Below, piece after piece: positions 1 to 14,902 of a stretch of 14,957 nucleotides of DNA. Each line of letters starts with the position of its first letter. Position 1 is the stretch's first letter. A program made the position numbers and the translations under genes. The notes below the pieces were generated by a model, which was not told the DNA's origin, did not search any database, and saw nothing but the letters and a program-made list of their open reading frames with translations. The stretch comes from a virus. Location of the stretch: the UHGV virus genome UHGV-1298062. One strand, written 5' to 3'.

Positions 1-86
1 GAAGCTCTACACTTTGAGCCTGTAAAATTGATTAAAAACTTATGTGTAAAATAGAACGCATTAGTCAGTAGCTAAGAGATGCAATA

Positions 87-854
87 ATGGACGATTTATC
101 GGTATACGCGAGATCATTGGATAAGGCTAAATACTATGTTTACTGTCTCTATGATACAGAAGACAAGATGAAAAGACCGTTTTACATAGGAAAAGGCAAA
201 TCGACTCGTTGTCTCGATCACATCAAGTATCCCGATGACTCTCCCAAATCCATGCGGATCAAAGAACTTTTGGCTAATAAAAAATTAGGCATAGATATTC
301 TTCGTCATGGTATGGATGAAACCACAGCCAAACTTGTTGAGGCGACATGCATCGACCTTATGGGGGTCGGAGAGCTTACGAATAAGGTACGAGGAAGTGG
401 TTCCATGATGGGCAGAATATCACTGGACGCCTACCATCACTTAGTGCTGCAAGAGGAAACTGAAATTGCTCCTGAGCACGCCGGTCTTGCCTTCCTGCTA
501 AACAGCACCTACAAGTCAGGAATGTCCGCTCTGGCATTATATGAAGCTACGCGTGGCGTATGGGCAAAGGTTCCAAGAGACGAGAATCTCAAATATGCCT
601 ACGCTACATATGGGGGCCTGATAATGGAAGTTTATCAGATTGAATGCTGGGTCAAAGCCGGTTCTCAGCAGTACTTTACAAGGGATATAGCTCTTGGCCC
701 CGACACAAAACGTTATGAATTTGTTGGCAGAATAGCCGATGAGCATATCAGAAAACTGTATGTAGGCAAATTAATCAAGAAGCCACCAAGCTACGGCAGC
801 CCTTTTGTGAAGGTTGGGGTGGTTAGGAATGAACATAGTGTTAGCGCGGCATAA
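87..854 (+). CDS. GIY-YIG-like nuclease domain protein with uncharacterised C-terminal domain
   Basis: ATG at 87 with AAGAG 8 nt upstream; 255 codons. N-terminal ~95 aa shows a GIY-YIG-like pattern (YVYCLYD ... FYIGKGK ... R..DH, then candidate catalytic E and N further on). C-terminal ~150 aa has no motif I can assign. Followed by the hairpin terminator at 870-908. Confidence 0.6.
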   Translation: MDDLSVYARSLDKAKYYVYCLYDTEDKMKRPFYIGKGKSTRCLDHIKYPDDSPKSMRIKELLANKKLGIDILRHGMDETTAKLVEATCIDLMGVGELTNKVRGSGSMMGRISLDAYHHLVLQEETEIAPEHAGLAFLLNSTYKSGMSALALYEATRGVWAKVPRDENLKYAYATYGGLIMEVYQIECWVKAGSQQYFTRDIALGPDTKRYEFVGRIADEHIRKLYVGKLIKKPPSYGSPFVKVGVVRNEHSVSAA

Positions 855-869
855 AGCTGACACTGTACT

Positions 870-908
870 TATGCATTGGCGCGTACATTGCGCCAATGCA
901 TAATTTTT
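870..908. terminator. Rho-independent terminator hairpin between convergent genes
   Basis: Perfect 13-bp inverted repeat tatgcattggcgc / gcgccaatgcata (870-882 and 890-902) with 7-nt loop, followed on the + strand by ATTTTT (903-908). Lies between the gene ending at 854 (+) and the gene ending at 907 (-). The T-tract is only on the + side, so it mainly terminates the + strand gene. Confidence 0.55.
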
Positions 909-1266
909 AACCTTTCTTCATCAACTCTCGTTTGATTTCATCGGTACGCATCGTGACATCGGCAGCTGTGATCGCCTCGTTAAGTTTCACGATGTCCTCG
1001 ATTTCCTGCGGTGACTTCTCTGCCAGATGGAAAATGGCTGCGCGAATCACGTCAGAACGGGTGAACTTCTCGAAACGAGGGATGAACTTCATCATTTCCA
1101 GCAGTTCGAAGTATTCGTCCTCCAGTGACATTGTGCGGCTTTTAATTTTCTCTTTGCCACGAGTCGGGCGTCCCTGTGGTCTGACTGGTTGGCGCAAAGG
1201 AGTTGTGTTCTTGGCCGGTGCATCAGGCTCTTTGCGCTTTGCTAGGTCACCCATTTTCATGGACAT
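907..1266 (-). CDS. small partner protein of the ParA-like ATPase (ParG/ParB-like, putative DNA-binding adaptor)
   Basis: ATG at 1266 overlaps the stop of the upstream ATPase gene (TAATG), implying translational coupling. 119 aa with a basic, Pro-rich N-terminal tail and a C-terminal region consistent with strand-helix-helix. Assignment is by position and size relative to a small ParA, not by a diagnostic motif. Confidence 0.5.
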   Translation of the reverse strand: MSMKMGDLAKRKEPDAPAKNTTPLRQPVRPQGRPTRGKEKIKSRTMSLEDEYFELLEMMKFIPRFEKFTRSDVIRAAIFHLAEKSPQEIEDIVKLNEAITAADVTMRTDEIKRELMKKG

Positions 1267-1934
1267 TATTCTTCTTCCTCCAGACTCAACAGATAATCTA
1301 CAAATTCTTCAAACTCGGCTTCCGCCTTTTTGTCGCGCTCGCTACCGGTCATTTCAAAGATAGAACGACCAGACTCTTCCGCATCATCATAGACGTTGCG
1401 GTTATATAAATTGACTGGCGCAGACTCGATGCCAAACGTCTCGACAATCTCTTTAGCCGCCAAAATGCGAGACACTTGTGATGGCAAAGCCGGGCACTGG
1501 TTCATGACCGCGCGGACCTTCACTTTATCGTTTACATTACGAACATTGTCGATAATAGGATCGATGTCACGCAGAGATTTCAAATCACGACGCTTAGGAC
1601 GAAGCGGGATAATGATAACGTCGGCCATCAGCATCGCTTGTCGCTGAATTTCGGAGTCAAAGCCACCAGCATCTACCACTACAAACTCAGCTCTACCCTG
1701 AAGCGATTTTAGGTGCTTAATGATGTCATCCTGAACGTATGCAAAAGGAATCAGCTCAAGGTCTTCGTTCTGTCGACGGTCTTCACACCAGCTTGTTGTC
1801 GTGCGCTGAATATCTATATCAGTGATATAAACCTTCTTCTTCTTTTTGACTTTCAGGCAAACGGCAATTTGCTGGGCAACAGTGGATTTGCCAGGCCCGC
1901 CCTTTGTGCCGCCAACCACAAAGATCTTGGTCAT
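1266..1934 (-). CDS. ParA/Soj-family ATPase (small, deviant Walker A; type Ib partition-like)
   Basis: ATG at 1934 with GGGAA 7 nt upstream; 222 aa. Deviant Walker A KGGPGKST near the N-terminus (VVGGTKGGPGKST). Its length and lack of an N-terminal HTH extension are typical of ParF-like small ParA proteins. Confidence 0.8.
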   Translation of the reverse strand: MTKIFVVGGTKGGPGKSTVAQQIAVCLKVKKKKKVYITDIDIQRTTTSWCEDRRQNEDLELIPFAYVQDDIIKHLKSLQGRAEFVVVDAGGFDSEIQRQAMLMADVIIIPLRPKRRDLKSLRDIDPIIDNVRNVNDKVKVRAVMNQCPALPSQVSRILAAKEIVETFGIESAPVNLYNRNVYDDAEESGRSIFEMTGSERDKKAEAEFEEFVDYLLSLEEEE

Positions 1935-2080
1935 TGGAGAGTTCCCTTTGCGTATATAATTATCGTCTGAAACAACTTGTTTTCTTATATGTGATATAGC
2001 CTAAATGCCTACGGCTGCGGTGTAAAGGTTATTTAGTAGGTTGTTATTGCCTATTGCTAGTAACTGTTTTCATTTGTCTG

Positions 2081-2109
2081 TTGAAAAAAGTGACAATCAT
2101 CTCTATATT
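2081..2109 (+). promoter_or_regulatory. candidate sigma70 promoter for the toxin-antitoxin operon
   Basis: TTGAAA (2081-2086), 17-nt spacer, TATATT (2104-2109) on the + strand in the divergent intergenic region, about 145 nt upstream of the antitoxin ATG. Read by eye, not scored. Confidence 0.4.
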
Positions 2110-2113
2110 ACGA

Positions 2114-2132
2114 GTACGGTAAATTGCCGTAC
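2114..2132. promoter_or_regulatory. inverted repeat GTACGG-N7-CCGTAC just downstream of the candidate -10 (possible operator)
   Basis: Perfect 6-bp arms at 2114-2119 and 2127-2132, placed around the inferred transcription start of the candidate promoter. Confidence 0.3.
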
Positions 2133-2214
2133 ACAATTTGATGACACATACGCAATGGGCTATAGCCCAGTTAAATAACCTTTGAGTCGAAAACTCAGTT
2201 TAAATAGAGAGCAA

Positions 2215-2243
2215 TGATGGCCTTCCTACATCACCGGCCATCA
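2215..2243. promoter_or_regulatory. inverted repeat TGATGGCC-N13-GGCCATCA adjacent to the antitoxin ribosome-binding site (candidate operator)
   Basis: Perfect 8-bp arms at 2215-2222 and 2236-2243, ending 10 nt before the antitoxin ATG at 2254 and overlapping the GGGGG Shine-Dalgarno region. Type II TA operons are usually autoregulated through palindromes at this position. Confidence 0.4.
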
Positions 2244-2253
2244 GGGGGTACAC

Positions 2254-2523
2254 ATGTCCGCACTGAAAAAGCAGCGCATCGATTTGAGATTAACCGATGA
2301 CGATAAAAGCATCATCGAGGAAGCTGCCGCAATGTCTAACCAGAGCATTACCCAGTTCATGGTTAGCAGTGCATCCGAACGTGCCGTGAAGGTGATAGAG
2401 CAACACCGTAGACTGGTTCTAAGTGAAGAGTCCTGGAATCTGGTTATGGATGCTATAAGCAATCCTCCGGCACCGAACGACAAGCTGAAACGAGCTGCCA
2501 ATCGTCTGAAAAGCATGGAGTAA
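2254..2523 (+). CDS. DUF1778-type ribbon-helix-helix antitoxin (AtaR/TacA/KacA family)
   Basis: ATG 2254 with GGGGG 5 nt upstream; 89 aa. The sequence (MSALKKQRIDLRLTDDDKSIIEEAAA...QFMVSSASERA...) matches my recollection of antitoxins paired with GNAT toxins. Only 8 nt separate it from the toxin gene. Confidence 0.82.
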   Translation: MSALKKQRIDLRLTDDDKSIIEEAAAMSNQSITQFMVSSASERAVKVIEQHRRLVLSEESWNLVMDAISNPPAPNDKLKRAANRLKSME

Positions 2524-2530
2524 TTTACTC

Positions 2531-3052
2531 GTGAGCAATACGACGATCGAGATTTTCTCTGGAGAGAACGATTATGATCTAAACGGTTTTGATTGCGGCG
2601 AAGAGTCACTAAACGCATTTTTGACCAACCACTTAAAAAGACAGCATGAAGGAAAAATTCTTCGCGCTTATGTGCTTTGCACTAAAGAAGAAATACCAAA
2701 GGTATTAGGTTATTACACTTTGTCAGGCAGCTGCTTTGAGAAAGAAACCTTACCTTCAAAGAGTCAGCAAAAGAAAGTGCCTTATCGGCATGTCCCAAGT
2801 ATCACTTTAGGCAGACTGGCTTTGGACAAATCTCTTCAAGGTCAGGGGCTTGGCTCAATGCTTGTAACTCACGCAATGCGTGTTGTGTACAATGCATCTC
2901 TTGCGGTAGGCATTCATGGGCTTTTCGTTGAGGCGTTGAACGATAAAGCCAGAGCGTTTTATAAAAGTTTGGGCTTTATCCAGCTGGTTGGTAACAACGA
3001 TCGTTCTTTGTTCTATCCAACAAAATCTATCGAAAAATTGTTCGAAGAATAA
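2531..3052 (+). CDS. GNAT-family acetyltransferase toxin (AtaT/TacT/KacT-like, tRNA-acetylating type)
   Basis: GTG 2531 is the only in-frame start, with GGAG 10 nt upstream; 173 aa. GNAT signature including the acetyl-CoA-binding block LQGQGLGSMLV. Conserved blocks (FDCGEE.LN.FL, ILRAY.LC, LGYYTL.GSCFE, PS.TLGRLA.D.SLQGQG, GIHGLFVEALN.KA..FYKSLGF) match tRNA-acetylating toxins as I recall them. Confidence 0.82.
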   Translation: MSNTTIEIFSGENDYDLNGFDCGEESLNAFLTNHLKRQHEGKILRAYVLCTKEEIPKVLGYYTLSGSCFEKETLPSKSQQKKVPYRHVPSITLGRLALDKSLQGQGLGSMLVTHAMRVVYNASLAVGIHGLFVEALNDKARAFYKSLGFIQLVGNNDRSLFYPTKSIEKLFEE

Positions 3053-3084
3053 TGTGTCCCCCTCATTTGAGGGGAACTTCGACA

Positions 3085-3288
3085 TCACCAACCGCAAACT
3101 CTCTCTCCCATCGTATTGTGAAAAAGGATTTGGCGTTCGGTTTCTTCGGTCATTACATCGTCATTGCTGATATAAATAGGTTCAGCGCCATCGCAGAACA
3201 ACACGCTGGTGGTCTGTGGCTTAATTGCGCACCCACTTATCATGCAGCTCACGATGAATGGCAGAAGCATCTTTCTGACGTATTTCAC
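3085..3288 (-). CDS. outer-membrane lipoprotein, o-spanin (Rz1)-like, overlapping the 3' end of the upstream gene
   Basis: 67 aa from GTG 3288 (alternative ATG at 3270). n-region MKYVRK, hydrophobic core, lipobox ISGC with Ala at +2 (outer-membrane sorting under Lol rules). Overlaps gene 3221-3472 by 68 nt in another frame. Not proline-rich, unlike lambda Rz1. Confidence 0.5.
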   Translation of the reverse strand: MKYVRKMLLPFIVSCMISGCAIKPQTTSVLFCDGAEPIYISNDDVMTEETERQILFHNTMGERVCGW

Positions 3289-3472
3289 TGTTCATCTCAT
3301 TCACCACTTCCACTGTGCTTTGAAGACGCTTGTTATCTTCCCGCCGTTCTTTCTCTTCCATACTGCGTCTGGCCATATACCCGCCATAGGAGTATGCGCC
3401 GACAAGGACTAGAATGACGGCGGCCAGAGTGAACAAAGCGGATTTCATTTTGAACAACAGGCCGTCGAACAT
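3221..3472 (-). CDS. small inner-membrane protein with N-terminal TM helix and charged coiled-coil tail (i-spanin/Rz-like, unusually short)
   Basis: ATG 3472 lies 2 nt after the stop of the upstream gene; 83 aa. Hydrophobic segment SALFTLAAVILVLVGAYSYGG, then a highly charged helical tail (RRSMEEKERREDNKRLQ...). Confidence 0.55.
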   Translation of the reverse strand: MFDGLLFKMKSALFTLAAVILVLVGAYSYGGYMARRSMEEKERREDNKRLQSTVEVVNEMNSEIRQKDASAIHRELHDKWVRN

Positions 3473-3474
3473 AC

Positions 3475-4167
3475 TTACACTAATCCTTTCTGGTGCTTGC
3501 GAACCTGGGACCAGGCAATGAATGCTGCCACAAGAATGGTAGCTACGCCAAAGATGATGCGTACCGTATCTCCACTGGAGATATTGCCTTGCGCTTTATC
3601 CATTGCGGCAGAAACTTGAGGCATAACGTCAGCAATTTGTGCAAGGCCAATACCTGCAGTGACTGTAGCACCTGTGGTTTCTTTTGTTACAGGAACGGCT
3701 TTTACAGCCTTTACCGGTTTGACAATGCCGGCACGTCGCAGACCTTCTTCGATAAGTTCTGGTGTATACCAGCTATTGGGGGTTTTCAGCGGACCTCGGC
3801 CATTTTCATGTCTAATGATCGCCTCTACCAGCGGTCTTAAGGTCTCGTAGTCATGCAGATCGATAATCATATCTGGTGCTACTCCAACGGCTTTGGATAC
3901 CTCGTTCACATAAGCCAAAGTGTTGTTCTCATGTGGAGGCGCCCAGCGTTCGATGACTTCGCGGATCGTATCAATGCTGGAGCCATCTTTTGCGCGGCGC
4001 TTGTCGTGGTAAGTAATGAGTGTCACTGCCAAAGCCCGAATCCCCCACACGGGGTCTTTGAACGTGCAGAAACGCGGTTCTGAAGAGTTGTTGACTAAGC
4101 CCTGCCACGGCGCTCCTTTATCAAGATTACCGGGGTTGTTATTACGAATGCCTCTCGGAGTTTTCAT
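3475..4167 (-). CDS. tail-anchored membrane protein with unassigned N-terminal domain (RNNNPGN block) and C-terminal TM helix
   Basis: Preferred start ATG 4167 (AGGAG 7 nt upstream); the ORF extends to an ATG at 4194. 230 aa, no N-terminal signal peptide. N-terminal ~150 aa globular domain (GIRNNNPGNL...W.G..., HENGRG), Lys/Val/Thr-rich linker, C-terminal hydrophobic helix IIFGVATILVAAFIAWSQV followed by RKHQK. Confidence 0.7.
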   Translation of the reverse strand: MKTPRGIRNNNPGNLDKGAPWQGLVNNSSEPRFCTFKDPVWGIRALAVTLITYHDKRRAKDGSSIDTIREVIERWAPPHENNTLAYVNEVSKAVGVAPDMIIDLHDYETLRPLVEAIIRHENGRGPLKTPNSWYTPELIEEGLRRAGIVKPVKAVKAVPVTKETTGATVTAGIGLAQIADVMPQVSAAMDKAQGNISSGDTVRIIFGVATILVAAFIAWSQVRKHQKGLV

Positions 4168-4180
4168 CCTTGATCTCCTG

Positions 4181-4504
4181 TTATTGCAATCCATTTTTTA
4201 CGCCATACGCGGCCAATCCTAAAAGCAGTACGGTAATAATGAACGACGTTATTTTCGAAACAATGCCGCCAAAGAACCCACTGGAGATGGTGTCGAGCCG
4301 GTTAAGAAGTTTGTCCAGATTGGAGTGCTGAATGCTGTGTTGTGCGGGCGTCATATCGCCAAAGTAGGTTTTGAGCTGGTCATTGACCTCCTGACCAATT
4401 TCCTCGCGTATTTCTTTACCTAATTTGCCTACGACTTCCCGAGCAACGATTGAGGCGATGCGCTCAACCTGTTCAGTTGTGACTCCCGCCATCTCGTTCG
4501 ACAT
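4181..4504 (-). CDS. small tail-anchored membrane protein (charged soluble N-terminal region, single C-terminal TM helix); holin-like or regulatory
   Basis: Preferred start ATG 4504 (GGAGGA 5 nt upstream); the ORF extends to an ATG at 4516. 107 aa; C-terminal helix ITSFIITVLLLGLAAYGV. A 13-nt gap containing the next gene's RBS separates it from 3475-4167. Confidence 0.65.
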   Translation of the reverse strand: MSNEMAGVTTEQVERIASIVAREVVGKLGKEIREEIGQEVNDQLKTYFGDMTPAQHSIQHSNLDKLLNRLDTISSGFFGGIVSKITSFIITVLLLGLAAYGVKNGLQ

Positions 4505-4540
4505 GTTTTCCTCCATGAAAAGTCAAATCGGGATGGCGTG

Positions 4541-4549
4541 TTTATATCA
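4541..4549 (-). promoter_or_regulatory. candidate extended -10 element (TGATATAAA) for the membrane-module operon
   Basis: Minus strand reads TGATATAAA (complement of 4541-4549), about 25-35 nt upstream of the first in-frame ATGs of gene 4181-4504. No convincing -35 hexamer. Confidence 0.35.
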
Positions 4550-4564
4550 TATTTTAACCATTTG

Positions 4565-4588
4565 TAGTAGGTATGTACTTACCTACTA
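4565..4588. promoter_or_regulatory. perfect palindrome tagtaggta-N6-tacctacta upstream of the membrane-module operon (candidate activator or repressor site)
   Basis: 9-bp arms at 4565-4573 and 4580-4588 with 6-nt spacer tgtact. Centre lies about 42 bp upstream of the start site inferred from the extended -10. The core is shared with motifs at 7978-7997 and 14787-14802. Confidence 0.4.
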
Positions 4589-4637
4589 TATATCTTGCAA
4601 ACTAATCGTTGTTAATAATGCAGATATAATCTGCCCC

Positions 4638-5219
4638 TTACTCTGCTGGTATTGTTGGCCAGTCAATATCCGGTGCCGTTGATGTGTCAATGCGGTTCAA
4701 TAAAACTCTATACTTCTTCCATGCAGTCAGCAACGATGCTTCTTCCTCCGTTGCAATCTCCAAATCTACAGCATCCTGAAGTGGCGCAATGTGCTCGCTG
4801 GCTACCTGCATCAGACTTTTTTTTGTTTCTTCCGCTTCCCGTACCTGAAACAATTTTTCTGTTTCCTCATCCTTCTCCCAGGATGTGCCGTCCCACTTCT
4901 GATATTCCCCATCCGGTGATAACCAGGTGACATTTTCCGGTAATGGCCCAAGTTCAGAAATAAACAACGCGTCCCCTGATTCCACGTCATAGACCGTTTT
5001 ACCCCTGTGGTCTTCAACGAGACTCCATGATTTATTTTCGCTGTTGAATACGGCCACGAAGCCTGCCGGAATATCTGGCGGTGCAATATCGGTACTGTTT
5101 GCTGGCAGACCTGTATAAGGCGGAATATATGCGTCACCTTCACCAATAAATTCATTAGTTCCGGCCAGCAGATTATAAATTTTTATGGTCCGTGGTTGTT
5201 CACTCATTCTGAATGCCAT
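4638..5219 (-). CDS. tfa: tail fibre assembly protein Tfa (lambda Tfa-like)
   Basis: 193 aa. Matches phage lambda Tfa along its whole length as I recall it ([34 protein letters not shown]...[14 protein letters not shown]). ATG 5219 overlaps the stf stop (TAATG). Confidence 0.9.
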
Positions 5220-7977: not shown

Positions 7978-7997
7978 ATAGGTATATACTTACTTAT
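7978..7997. promoter_or_regulatory. imperfect palindrome ataggta-N6-tacttat sharing the GTAAGTA.ATACCTA core with the site at 4565-4588
   Basis: 7-bp arms with one mismatch. On the minus strand it reads GTAAGTATATACCTA versus GTAAGTACATACCTA at the other site (14 of 15 identical). Lies in the J-stf intergenic region. Confidence 0.35.
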
Positions 7998-14774: not shown

Positions 14775-14902
14775 ACAATGATAGTAAATTAGTACTTACT
14801 TATCCAGGTACTTAAGCCTCAAATACTTGTCTGAATGTAGCAGTTAAGACACAGTACCCCTGATATCGCTTAGACTGGCCCCCTGAATCTCCAGACAACC
14901 AA

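Follow-up and report, generated by a model that had tools for sequence, protein, structure and literature searches.

The locus examined here raises the question of what four co-oriented genes for membrane proteins of different topology do between tfa and a toxin-antitoxin pair in the virus genome UHGV-1298062, the whole analysed stretch of which (14,957 nucleotides) is called the window below. A preliminary description of the sequence had regarded these genes, here g1 to g4, as a candidate uncharacterised system and had listed a displaced or second lysis cassette, a superinfection-exclusion or abortive-infection module, or something new as possible identities. The assignment to host lysis is the one that is borne out: g1-g4 are homologous to genes annotated as holin, endolysin, Rz and Rz1 in relatives, and in SSU5 no other genes bear a lysis annotation. 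They very probably represent the ordinary and sole host-lysis cassette of an SSU5-like phage-plasmid, located at the normal position for that group.

The region of the window is 100% identical to the E. coli plasmid pEC21Z137-115K, whose gene content includes RepA, ParA, DnaE, terminase, portal, capsid and tail genes, and the source of the window is an SSU5-like phage-plasmid, not a lambdoid element. The DNA of the cassette is 80-83% identical to that of Salmonella phage SSU5 and E. coli phage-plasmid Cyrano, in which the orthologues of g1-g4, SSU5 gp26-30 (SSU5_026-030) and Cyrano 22-25 (CYRAN_22-25), are annotated as holin, endolysin, Rz and Rz1, labels that are themselves predictions. A holin and an endolysin are also named for the SSU5-like group in genome announcements (PMC5427194). 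The cassette is already known from these annotated relatives and its novelty is low; the module as a whole cannot be called uncharacterised. The minus-strand arrangement (Table 1) was confirmed, with gaps of 13 nt between g1 and g2 and of 2 nt between g2 and g3 and an overlap of 68 nt between g3 and g4, and the same four genes occur in the order g1-g2-g3-g4 in all 78 complete related IMG/VR loci, two further loci interrupted by a contig end being outside this number. A metagenome scan yielded a single short contig, which ends right after a g1-like gene. On the minus strand, the cassette closes the late region: the tail-fibre and tfa genes directly precede it, and genes for plasmid maintenance come next. 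A place downstream of the tail-fibre genes is the rule throughout the SSU5-like group, and in all relatives the late structural operon finishes with the cassette.

Scans of the four proteins against Pfam, NCBIfam and PADLOC gave nothing significant. Hydrophobic segments (19-residue Kyte-Doolittle windows above 1.5) are only C-terminal in g1 (~75-106) and g2 (~196-223) and only N-terminal in g3 (4-34) and g4 (4-22); this profile, together with conservation over 78 loci, bears out the transmembrane (TM) segments and the g4 lipobox that had been described. The N-terminal regions of g1 and g2 had been called cytoplasmic; for g2 this placement is presumed rather than observed, since the periplasm is where the catalytic domain has to work.

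Table 1. Positions of the cassette genes, of the parts of the g2 protein and of the flanking regulatory features (nucleotide positions in the window unless residues are given)
Feature	Position	Strand	Remarks
g1	4181-4504	minus	107 aa; ATG start; GGAGG 6 nt upstream
g2	3475-4167	minus	230 aa; AGGAG upstream
g2 catalytic domain	residues ~1-150		PHA02564 family
g2 linker	residues 150-174		low AF2 confidence, probably flexible
g2 amphipathic helix	residues 175-192		AF2
g2 TM helix	residues ~200-222 (AF2 helix 200-229)		then basic tail RKHQKGLV
g3	3221-3472	minus	83 aa; start 2 nt past g2 stop
g4	3085-3288	minus	67 aa; GTG start; family ORF 3085-3300
Cassette promoter region (predicted)	4541-4593	minus	palindrome and extended -10
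Inverted repeat	4560-4593		17+17 nt; contains the palindrome core
Palindrome core	4568-4585	minus	TAGGTAAGTACATACCTA
Extended -10 (predicted)	plus-strand 4541-4549		TGATATAAA; pattern TGnTATAAA; 18 nt downstream of palindrome
GC-rich hairpin	3056-3077		between convergent Rz1 and GNAT-toxin genes; 9-bp stem, 6 GC pairs

The clearest assignment is that of g2, which by homology is an Enc34/M4Lys-type endolysin with a predicted PHA02564 catalytic domain and a C-terminal TM domain. Residues 3-151 matched the Enc34 endolysin structure (PDB 7Q47) with E=5.9e-56 in phmmer, and the protein matched phrog_873 'endolysin' at 3e-86. Residues W75, Y86 and E121 of g2, which are invariant in alignments of 18 and 20 sequences, correspond to Trp79, Tyr95 and Glu131 of Enc34 according to the 7Q47 alignment and the published data (PMC8943055); in Enc34, Glu131 is catalytic, and Trp79 and Tyr95 position the substrate (PMC8943055). 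No N-terminal signal or SAR sequence is present in g2, and the C-terminal TM module is conserved across the family. Experiments on the homologues M4Lys (BSPM4) and Enc34 ORF39 demonstrated that the catalytic domain is muralytic and that the full-length protein alone lyses E. coli in a TM-domain-dependent, azide-insensitive manner (PMC7143992, PMC8943055); the corresponding activity of g2 is predicted by homology. Export of such endolysins is treated in the literature as an unsolved problem (PMC8943055, PMC7143992), the puzzle being how a catalytic domain at the N-terminus gets across the membrane when the sole TM segment is C-terminal (PMC8943055). Twin-arginine export of g2 was rejected, as 'RR' occurs only in an unlikely upstream extension, with no hydrophobic core behind it. 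A holin fused within the endolysin found no support: the C-terminal 77 residues, scanned alone, matched only their own endolysin PHROG, with SLATT_1 below threshold.

The last two genes, g3 and g4, are assigned from their sequences to an overlapped i-spanin/o-spanin pair. The g3 protein, which matched phrog_1026 'Rz-like spanin' at 8e-22, consists of an N-terminal TM helix and a charged helical tail that is predicted to be periplasmic, and its similarity to the Rz-like protein of Redjac is weak (24% identity). The g4 protein matched phrog_1275 at 1e-25 and shares 57% identity with Redjac Rz1 over the C-terminal 37 residues. Furthermore, the table of spanin families in Kongari 2018 lists SSU5 under the family 'Chi', which is read here as the o-spanin family. 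The g4 signal peptide has an n-region with K2, R5 and K6 and a lipobox ISGC with Ala at +2 (MKYVRKMLLPFIVSCMISG followed by CA); the inner-membrane retention Asp at +2 is absent, the mature protein begins with Cys-Ala, and each of the 78 related loci examined has kept both the signal peptide and the lipobox. The g4 gene starts in a different frame inside the 3' end of g3. Its family ORF encodes 71 aa from an ATG at 3300-3298, from which the overlap with g3 measures 80 nt, and the 67-aa ORF opened by GTG, whose coordinates had been given correctly, is the remainder of that ORF rather than a full one: family codon 3 (3294-3292) is TGA in this window only and CGA in 27 relatives.

The identity of the first gene is less certain. 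The predicted fold of g1 comprises two long helices, the second of which ends in the C-terminal TM segment (~86-102), followed by a tail of five residues (KNGLQ; 3-12 residues across the family). G49, H56 and H60 are invariant, both histidines being in the cytoplasmic part. The family, PHROG 5093, is listed as 'unknown function', and the 'holin' label of g1 in SSU5 and Cyrano derives from position only: g1 is small, has at least one TM segment and lies 13 nt upstream of the endolysin gene, as expected of a holin in size and place. No resemblance to described holin families was found in Pfam, NCBIfam, PDB, PADLOC or PHROG, and the C-terminus of g1 is without the charged, hydrophilic tail that holins usually have. 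BLASTP detected no similarity to the first gene of the chi-type cassettes, which is the holin candidate there; Foldseek of the AF2 model against BFVD returned nothing with E<1, and when a profile of the g1 family was run against PDB, the only matches were spurious ones to designed repeats. Distant g1 relatives head lysis cassettes with Amidase_2, SLT or Peptidase_M15_3 endolysins, and in the five such contexts examined (L087, L090, L092, L111 and L112) an additional small holin-like gene for a protein with 2-3 TM segments occurs within the next two genes. The additional protein matches Pfam Holin_2-3 and phrog_1528 holin in L090 and phrog_8226 holin in L092; those of L087 and L112 are 2-TM proteins homologous to each other, and that of L111 is small and holin-like. 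With a separate holin-like gene beside the distant relatives, 'holin' may be the wrong label for g1, which may instead be a lysis regulator.

Upstream of g1, the promoter and palindrome that had been proposed for the cluster were confirmed as a real inverted repeat of fixed geometry. The palindrome, with up to three mismatches, is located 62-63 nt upstream of the g1 ATG in 73 of 79 related loci and 58-60 nt upstream in three more, and TGnTATAAA follows it after 18 nt. In the window, its centre is at about -42.5 relative to a predicted transcription start near 4534. The palindrome/-10 block and the 5'UTR are kept in Cyrano and SSU5 despite different upstream genes, and the DNA further upstream of the palindrome is unrelated among the loci. 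A generic sigma-70 scan of 2900-4800 found no promoter because a -35 element is absent, and the putative promoter was recognised only by comparison across loci. The exact long palindrome pattern occurs once on the plasmid; when mismatches are allowed, a genome-wide palindrome family is seen, of which the cassette palindrome is a member. Several copies directly precede ribosome-binding sites or terminator hairpins, so that an RNA hairpin fits as well as a DNA operator. ParB-like proteins are encoded on the element, and no publication on the palindrome or on late regulation in SSU5 came up in a literature search. At the other end of the cassette, the hairpin at 3056-3077 precedes a T-rich stretch on the minus strand and, judged from these features, resembles an intrinsic terminator at which the cassette transcript would end.

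For this element we infer the following course in all its steps. Late in the lytic cycle, the cassette would be transcribed from the palindrome-associated extended -10 promoter, possibly together with read-through from the tail operon, and the transcript would end at the hairpin at 3056-3077. The g2 product would be a peptidoglycan glycosidase tethered to the inner membrane via its C-terminal TM module, and g1, a small tail-anchored membrane protein, may set the time at which the cell wall becomes accessible, either as a holin or, about equally likely, as an antiholin-like regulator of a lesion made by the endolysin's own TM domain. After the wall is cut, the inner-membrane i-spanin g3 and the outer-membrane lipoprotein o-spanin g4 would form a complex that bridges the periplasm and disrupts the outer membrane.

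Alternative functions for the whole cluster have to be weighed against host lysis. An envelope module for superinfection exclusion or abortive infection, active from the resident plasmid, could be suspected where all four products are envelope proteins, the cluster adjoins a toxin-antitoxin pair and has its own promoter, and the SSU5 cassette is directly preceded by a Cor-like exclusion gene. This is extremely improbable when g2 is a homologue of muralytic enzymes with its catalytic residues intact, g3 and g4 are predicted spanins, PADLOC defence models gave no match for g1-g4 (E<=0.01), and the cluster both provides the only annotated lysis genes of a plaque-forming phage and terminates the late structural operon in all relatives. 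A displaced or second lysis cassette, beside a canonical one elsewhere on the replicon, had been suggested by a position unlike that in lambda, where lysis genes lie between Q and the head genes. That argument does not carry over to an SSU5-like element, for which a cassette after the tail-fibre genes is normal; the position is constant over 78 relatives and the same as in chi-like phages. Moreover, the 131 annotated features of SSU5 include no further endolysin, holin or spanin, and the 127 features that PGAP assigned to the identical plasmid include no other lysin; on the basis of these two annotations a second cassette is very improbable.

Within the preferred reading of g1-g4 as the sole lysis cassette, two further proposals concern individual genes. 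The proposal that g1 is a tail-anchored regulator of lysis timing (antiholin-like or a co-holin), with the hole made by the C-terminal TM module of the endolysin, has somewhat less than an even chance. It is consistent with the separate small 2-3-TM proteins in the five distant contexts, although these are five only and two holins are possible in one phage, and with the short five-residue tail and the two invariant cytoplasmic histidines, which point to a sensor or partner rather than a pore former. M4Lys alone lyses E. coli, and co-expression of the upstream gene slightly delayed lysis (PMC7143992), but the BSPM4 upstream gene is unrelated to g1, so that this result has no direct transfer to g1. 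Against a regulator, g1 is the sole holin candidate in SSU5-like cassettes, and great diversity is normal among holins. A wider form of the idea is tentative and rather doubtful: PHROG 5093 would be a novel class of tail-anchored inner-membrane protein with a cytoplasmic two-helix domain and an invariant G-x6-H-x3-H motif, which leads lysis cassettes and, in SSU5-like phage-plasmids, would gate a self-inserting, C-terminally anchored endolysin without making the hole itself, the cassette being switched on through a genome-wide regulon of the 18-bp palindrome; its timing role is proposed to be independent of endolysin type because the family is found with PHA02564-TMD, Amidase_2, SLT and M15 endolysins. 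What had been called 'something new' is not the module as a whole, and the phrase holds for g1 as an uncharacterised family and for the export question of the endolysin class. The other proposal is that the cassette is decaying in this element. The change of CGA to TGA is due to an A at position 3294, which is G in 27 relatives, and it also gives the plasmid a unique Rz (WP_254841648.1), three near-identical plasmids having WP_023135660.1 instead. The plasmid contains several IS elements and frameshifted genes. The window copy may thus be spanin-defective, with lysis stopping at the spherical-cell stage. However, a GTG 4 nt past the stop keeps a complete signal peptide (K2, R5, K6, hydrophobic core and lipobox), and hence termination-reinitiation could still give a functional lipoprotein; g1-g3 are intact and identical or nearly so to those of relatives, and a sequencing error in the deposited record is possible. 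Inactivation of the spanin by the nonsense codon is considered unlikely, though a serious possibility.

The main value of these assignments is annotation correction. Under the NCBI pipeline these genes are entered as 'hypothetical protein' or 'membrane protein' and Rz1 is left out, and this gap spans hundreds of phage-plasmids of E. coli, Salmonella, Klebsiella, Enterobacter and Citrobacter. Identification of the cassette helps to judge whether such plasmids still complete a lytic cycle. Resistance genes are often borne by such phage-plasmids. The Enc34/M4Lys endolysin class, with 1,426 homologous protein clusters, is far wider than the chi-like phages from which it was first described, and the 'holin'-labelled g1 family, which co-occurs elsewhere with canonical holins, is for that reason a good candidate for a new lysis regulator.

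Compared with known systems, the cassette is closest to those of SSU5 and Cyrano, which have the same four genes in the same order and place behind the tail-fibre genes. The flanks differ, with tfa and a DUF1778/GNAT toxin-antitoxin pair here and Cor-like and hypothetical genes in SSU5, and only the window copy has a stop at o-spanin codon 3. The chi-like phages (Hafnia Enc34 ORF38-41, Salmonella BSPM4, Siskin and Providencia Redjac) share the endolysin class of g2, which is 56% identical to the Redjac endolysin with the catalytic Glu, Trp and Tyr conserved, as well as the o-spanin family and the overlapped Rz/Rz1 arrangement, and their lysis cassette is likewise placed behind morphogenesis genes (PMC8943055). 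On the other hand, the resemblance of g3 to its Redjac counterpart is marginal, and the chi-type first gene (~108 aa, TM helix at the N-terminus, cytoplasmic coiled coil at the C-terminus) is unrelated to g1, which has the opposite layout of a soluble part first and the TM helix last. Dispersed operators are known for RK2 KorB and P1 C1, and the palindrome, a candidate operator, resembles these in that one palindromic or conserved site is repeated at many promoter-proximal or intergenic places of a plasmid or phage-plasmid. Lambda S-R-Rz-Rz1 and P2 Y-K-LysA-LysB-LysC follow the same logic and order of membrane timing protein, muralytic enzyme, i-spanin and o-spanin, and the Rz1 frame overlaps the end of Rz here as in P2 LysB/LysC (PMC8943055), whereas the holin and endolysin have no sequence relationship to those of lambda or P2. 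The endolysin is anchored C-terminally in g2, whereas lambda R is soluble and SAR endolysins are anchored N-terminally; g1, with one TM segment at its extreme C-terminus, differs from class I-III holins; and the spanins of the window, at 83 aa and 47 aa mature, are much shorter than those of lambda and P2.

The four minus-strand genes are here termed g1 (putative holin), g2 (endolysin), g3 (i-spanin, Rz) and g4 (o-spanin, Rz1). As the preliminary description had reported, the spaces between successive genes are 13 nt and 2 nt, and g4 overlaps g3 by 68 nt. Good Shine-Dalgarno sequences are present for g1 and g2; an alternative ATG of g1 at 4516 falls within the Shine-Dalgarno sequence of the 4504 start, and the 107-aa form is favored by the PHROG profile and PGAP. 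The membrane features described earlier were likewise seen, by hydropathy and sequence: a single hydrophobic stretch per protein, C-terminal in g1 and g2 and N-terminal in g3 and g4, and a g4 N-terminus with a basic n-region, the lipobox ISGC and Ala at +2. The proposal of a new, uncharacterized envelope system is not sustained, because the same genes are already annotated as holin, endolysin, Rz spanin and Rz1 spanin in the Escherichia phage-plasmid Cyrano and the Salmonella phage SSU5. The cluster is a lysis cassette that is already known and annotated in a phage-plasmid group with many members, and g1 is its one uncharacterized component. It looked unannotated because the PGAP names are "hypothetical protein" or "membrane protein", Rz1 is not called, and none of the four proteins has a match in Pfam, NCBIfam or PADLOC.

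Positions of the lysis cassette and neighboring features in the window
Feature	Position	Strand	Description
GIY-YIG protein	87-854		plasmid-maintenance region (87-3052)
Small partner gene of ParA-like ATPase	907-1266		plasmid-maintenance region
ParA-like ATPase	1266-1934		plasmid-maintenance region
Toxin-antitoxin pair	2254-3052		DUF1778/GNAT (TacAT/KacAT-type)
GC-rich hairpin	3056-3077		between convergent Rz1 and GNAT-toxin genes
g4	3085-3288	minus	67-aa ORF, GTG start
g3	3221-3472	minus	83-aa ORF
g2	3475-4167	minus	230-aa ORF
g1	4181-4504	minus	107-aa ORF
Palindrome copy	4568-4585	minus	core TAGGTAAGTACATACCTA
Rfam IS009 (RF02111) match	4678-4876	minus	full-length, 189.6 bits, E=3e-46
Palindrome copy	7979-7996
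Palindrome copy	14785-14802

A stretch of 1,651 bp that includes the cluster is shared at 100% identity with the E. coli plasmid pEC21Z137-115K (NZ_CP101235.1), on which the window starts at position 44878. This plasmid, which carries repA, parA, dnaE, primase, helicase, terminase, portal, capsid and lambda-like tail genes, is an SSU5-like phage-plasmid. With coverage of at least 80%, the same region occurs in 372 plasmid records, nearly all of them non-mobilizable, whose hosts are Escherichia, Enterobacter, Salmonella, Citrobacter and Klebsiella; in the phage collection it is matched by Cyrano (83%) and SSU5 (80%). Genome announcements of related phage-like plasmids have already listed "a holin and an endolysin" (PMC5427194).

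A displaced or second lysis cassette had also been considered. No other endolysin, holin or spanin is found in the complete SSU5 annotation (131 features), and the only further candidates that the annotation of pEC21Z137-115K shows are the tape measure and a C40 peptidase of the tail tip. Of 80 IMG/VR loci found via g1, 78 are complete at the contig ends, and each of these has the four genes together and in the same order; the cassette comes after the tail-fiber region in Cyrano and SSU5, the placement also seen in chi-like phages (PMC8943055). Because these are the sole annotated lysis genes and their order and position are constant, the cassette is neither displaced nor duplicated; the four genes match an annotated holin, endolysin, Rz and Rz1 set that forms the only lysis cassette. 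Two divergent relatives (L021 and L022, 4525-5874) carry an insertion of 1.35 kb between the endolysin gene and the spanin genes, with ORFs of 61 aa and 220 aa and a third for a lipoprotein of 93 aa; the lysis cassette tolerates inserted cargo. A plasmid-maintenance region borders the cassette, and its toxin-antitoxin pair is present in Cyrano and absent from SSU5. An LprI-family lysozyme inhibitor is annotated at 41642-42340 of the plasmid locus L004 (plasmid 91642-92340) and as SSU5_101, distant from the cassette on the same phage-plasmids. The IS009 match lies entirely within the tail-fiber assembly (tfa) coding sequence and probably reflects conservation among prophage tfa genes, not a separate RNA gene.

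The spanin genes match Rz-like spanin PHROGs (g3, 8e-22; g4, 1e-25) in an overlapped arrangement of the P2 LysB/LysC type, and over its C-terminal half, g4 shares 57% identity with Rz1 of the chi-like Providencia phage Redjac. In the spanin census of Kongari et al., SSU5 is entered twice: as a member of the "Chi" family, together with Chi, Enc34, iEPS5 and Redjac, and as a singleton. We read the first entry as its o-spanin family and the second as its i-spanin family. The family o-spanin ORF comprises 71 aa from an ATG at 3300 (MRRTVKYVRKM...). Its third codon (3292-3294, minus strand) is TGA in the window and the identical plasmid only and CGA in 27 relatives; this change truncates the 71-aa ORF and, in the Rz frame that overlaps it, replaces Thr by Met, making the plasmid's Rz protein unique. 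A GTG lies 4 nt past the stop, at which reinitiation could occur, and o-spanin function in the window copy is uncertain. In Cyrano, Rz1 is annotated as 39 aa, with the signal peptide left out.

The cassette unit ends at the GC-rich hairpin, and the palindrome noticed upstream of g1 is real. Of 79 related loci, 73 carry a copy with at most 3 mismatches at a distance of 62-63 nt upstream of the g1 ATG, and 3 more carry one at 58-60 nt. The copy is followed by 18 variable nt, TGnTATAAA and a conserved 5' leader; the DNA further upstream falls into at least 10 unrelated contexts. On this comparison, the candidate promoter proposed earlier would be an extended -10 at fixed spacing to the palindrome, with no -35 element and a dyad centered near -42.5, and is probably factor-dependent. 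The 18-bp palindrome TAGGTAAGTACTTACCTA is scattered over the whole phage-plasmid, with 16 copies at 3 or fewer mismatches in the plasmid (L003-L005 and the window) against 0 in shuffles and 14 in SSU5 (L104, L002, L105 and L106) against 0.1 expected. Copies lie at corresponding (orthologous) intergenic sites of the two elements, among late as well as early genes (terminase/portal, after the capsid gene, before the tail-fiber gene and before nucleotide-metabolism genes). For some, the distance to a TGnTAnAAT-like element is that found in the cassette; others adjoin ribosome-binding sites or stand ahead of terminator hairpins. The palindrome may be a DNA operator of a global regulator, beside which the ParB-like proteins encoded by the phage-plasmid may be named, or an RNA hairpin, both being possible. 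The literature searched contains no description of this dispersed palindrome.

The "holin" label of g1 is positional; the protein belongs to PHROG 5093 ("unknown function"), and PDB and Foldseek searches gave no relative. An exhaustive profile search yielded 62 representative relatives of 100-140 aa, all with the same layout. G49, H56 and H60, three positions of a conserved FGDMTxxQHxxQH motif, do not vary among them; AF2 models two long helices (10-48 and 53-103). Genomic context was obtained for five distant members. The g1-like gene is followed by an Amidase_2 endolysin, a 2-TM protein and an i-spanin with embedded lipoprotein (L087); a Holin_2-3 holin, an SLT endolysin with an N-terminal TM segment, and spanins (L090); a holin (phrog_8226), an SLT endolysin and spanins (L092); two small TM proteins (L111); or a Peptidase_M15_3 endolysin and a 2-TM protein (L112). 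PHROG 5093 proteins thus head cassettes with four endolysin types (PHA02564-TMD, Amidase_2, SLT and Peptidase_M15_3), which ties the family firmly to lysis cassettes, irrespective of endolysin type. Since a separate 2-3-TM holin-like gene accompanies the family in all five contexts outside the SSU5 group, g1 may act not as the hole former but as a co-holin or a regulator of timing, a reading about equally probable as that of a holin. If g1 were a regulator, the endolysin's own TM module could make the membrane lesion in SSU5-like cassettes. The chi-type first lysis gene has no similarity to g1, and its product is laid out the other way round, with the TM helix at the N-terminus and a coiled coil at the C-terminus. 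Database labels for chi-type cassettes are inconsistent: in Redjac this gene (L006:2743-3069), which encodes an N-terminal TM helix, matches phrog_7686 ("Rz-like spanin") and is left unannotated in RefSeq, and its homologue is viewed as a holin in Enc34 and Siskin.

Residues 3-151 of g2 match the catalytic-domain crystal structure of the Hafnia phage Enc34 endolysin (7Q47, E=5.9e-56), and g2 matches phrog_873 ("endolysin") at 3e-86. E121, W75 and Y86, corresponding to the Enc34 catalytic Glu131 and Trp79/Tyr95 pair, show no variation in two alignments of diverse homologues (18 and 20 sequences), and the C-terminal 70 residues are likewise conserved. In the AF2 model, residues 150-174 form a low-confidence linker, which is followed by a helix at 175-192 and by a TM helix at 200-229 with a basic tail at its end. 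The catalytic domain of M4Lys, the endolysin of phage BSPM4, degrades peptidoglycan with N-acetylglucosaminidase-type products, and full-length M4Lys alone lyses E. coli; this lysis is not blocked by azide and is abolished by trimming the TM segment (PMC7143992). The Enc34 authors reported no known mechanism by which the N-terminal domain reaches the periplasm and supposed that only chi-like phages and their close relatives have the architecture (PMC8943055). At E<=1e-10, 1,426 clusters belong to the full-length g2 family, and many of them come from phage-plasmid-type contigs about 100-115 kb long. The acknowledged question of the route to the periplasm is common to g2 and chi-like phages, and g2 has the same "unusual" architecture as Enc34 ORF39, M4Lys and the Siskin endolysin, namely, a PHA02564 catalytic domain joined to a C-terminal transmembrane domain.
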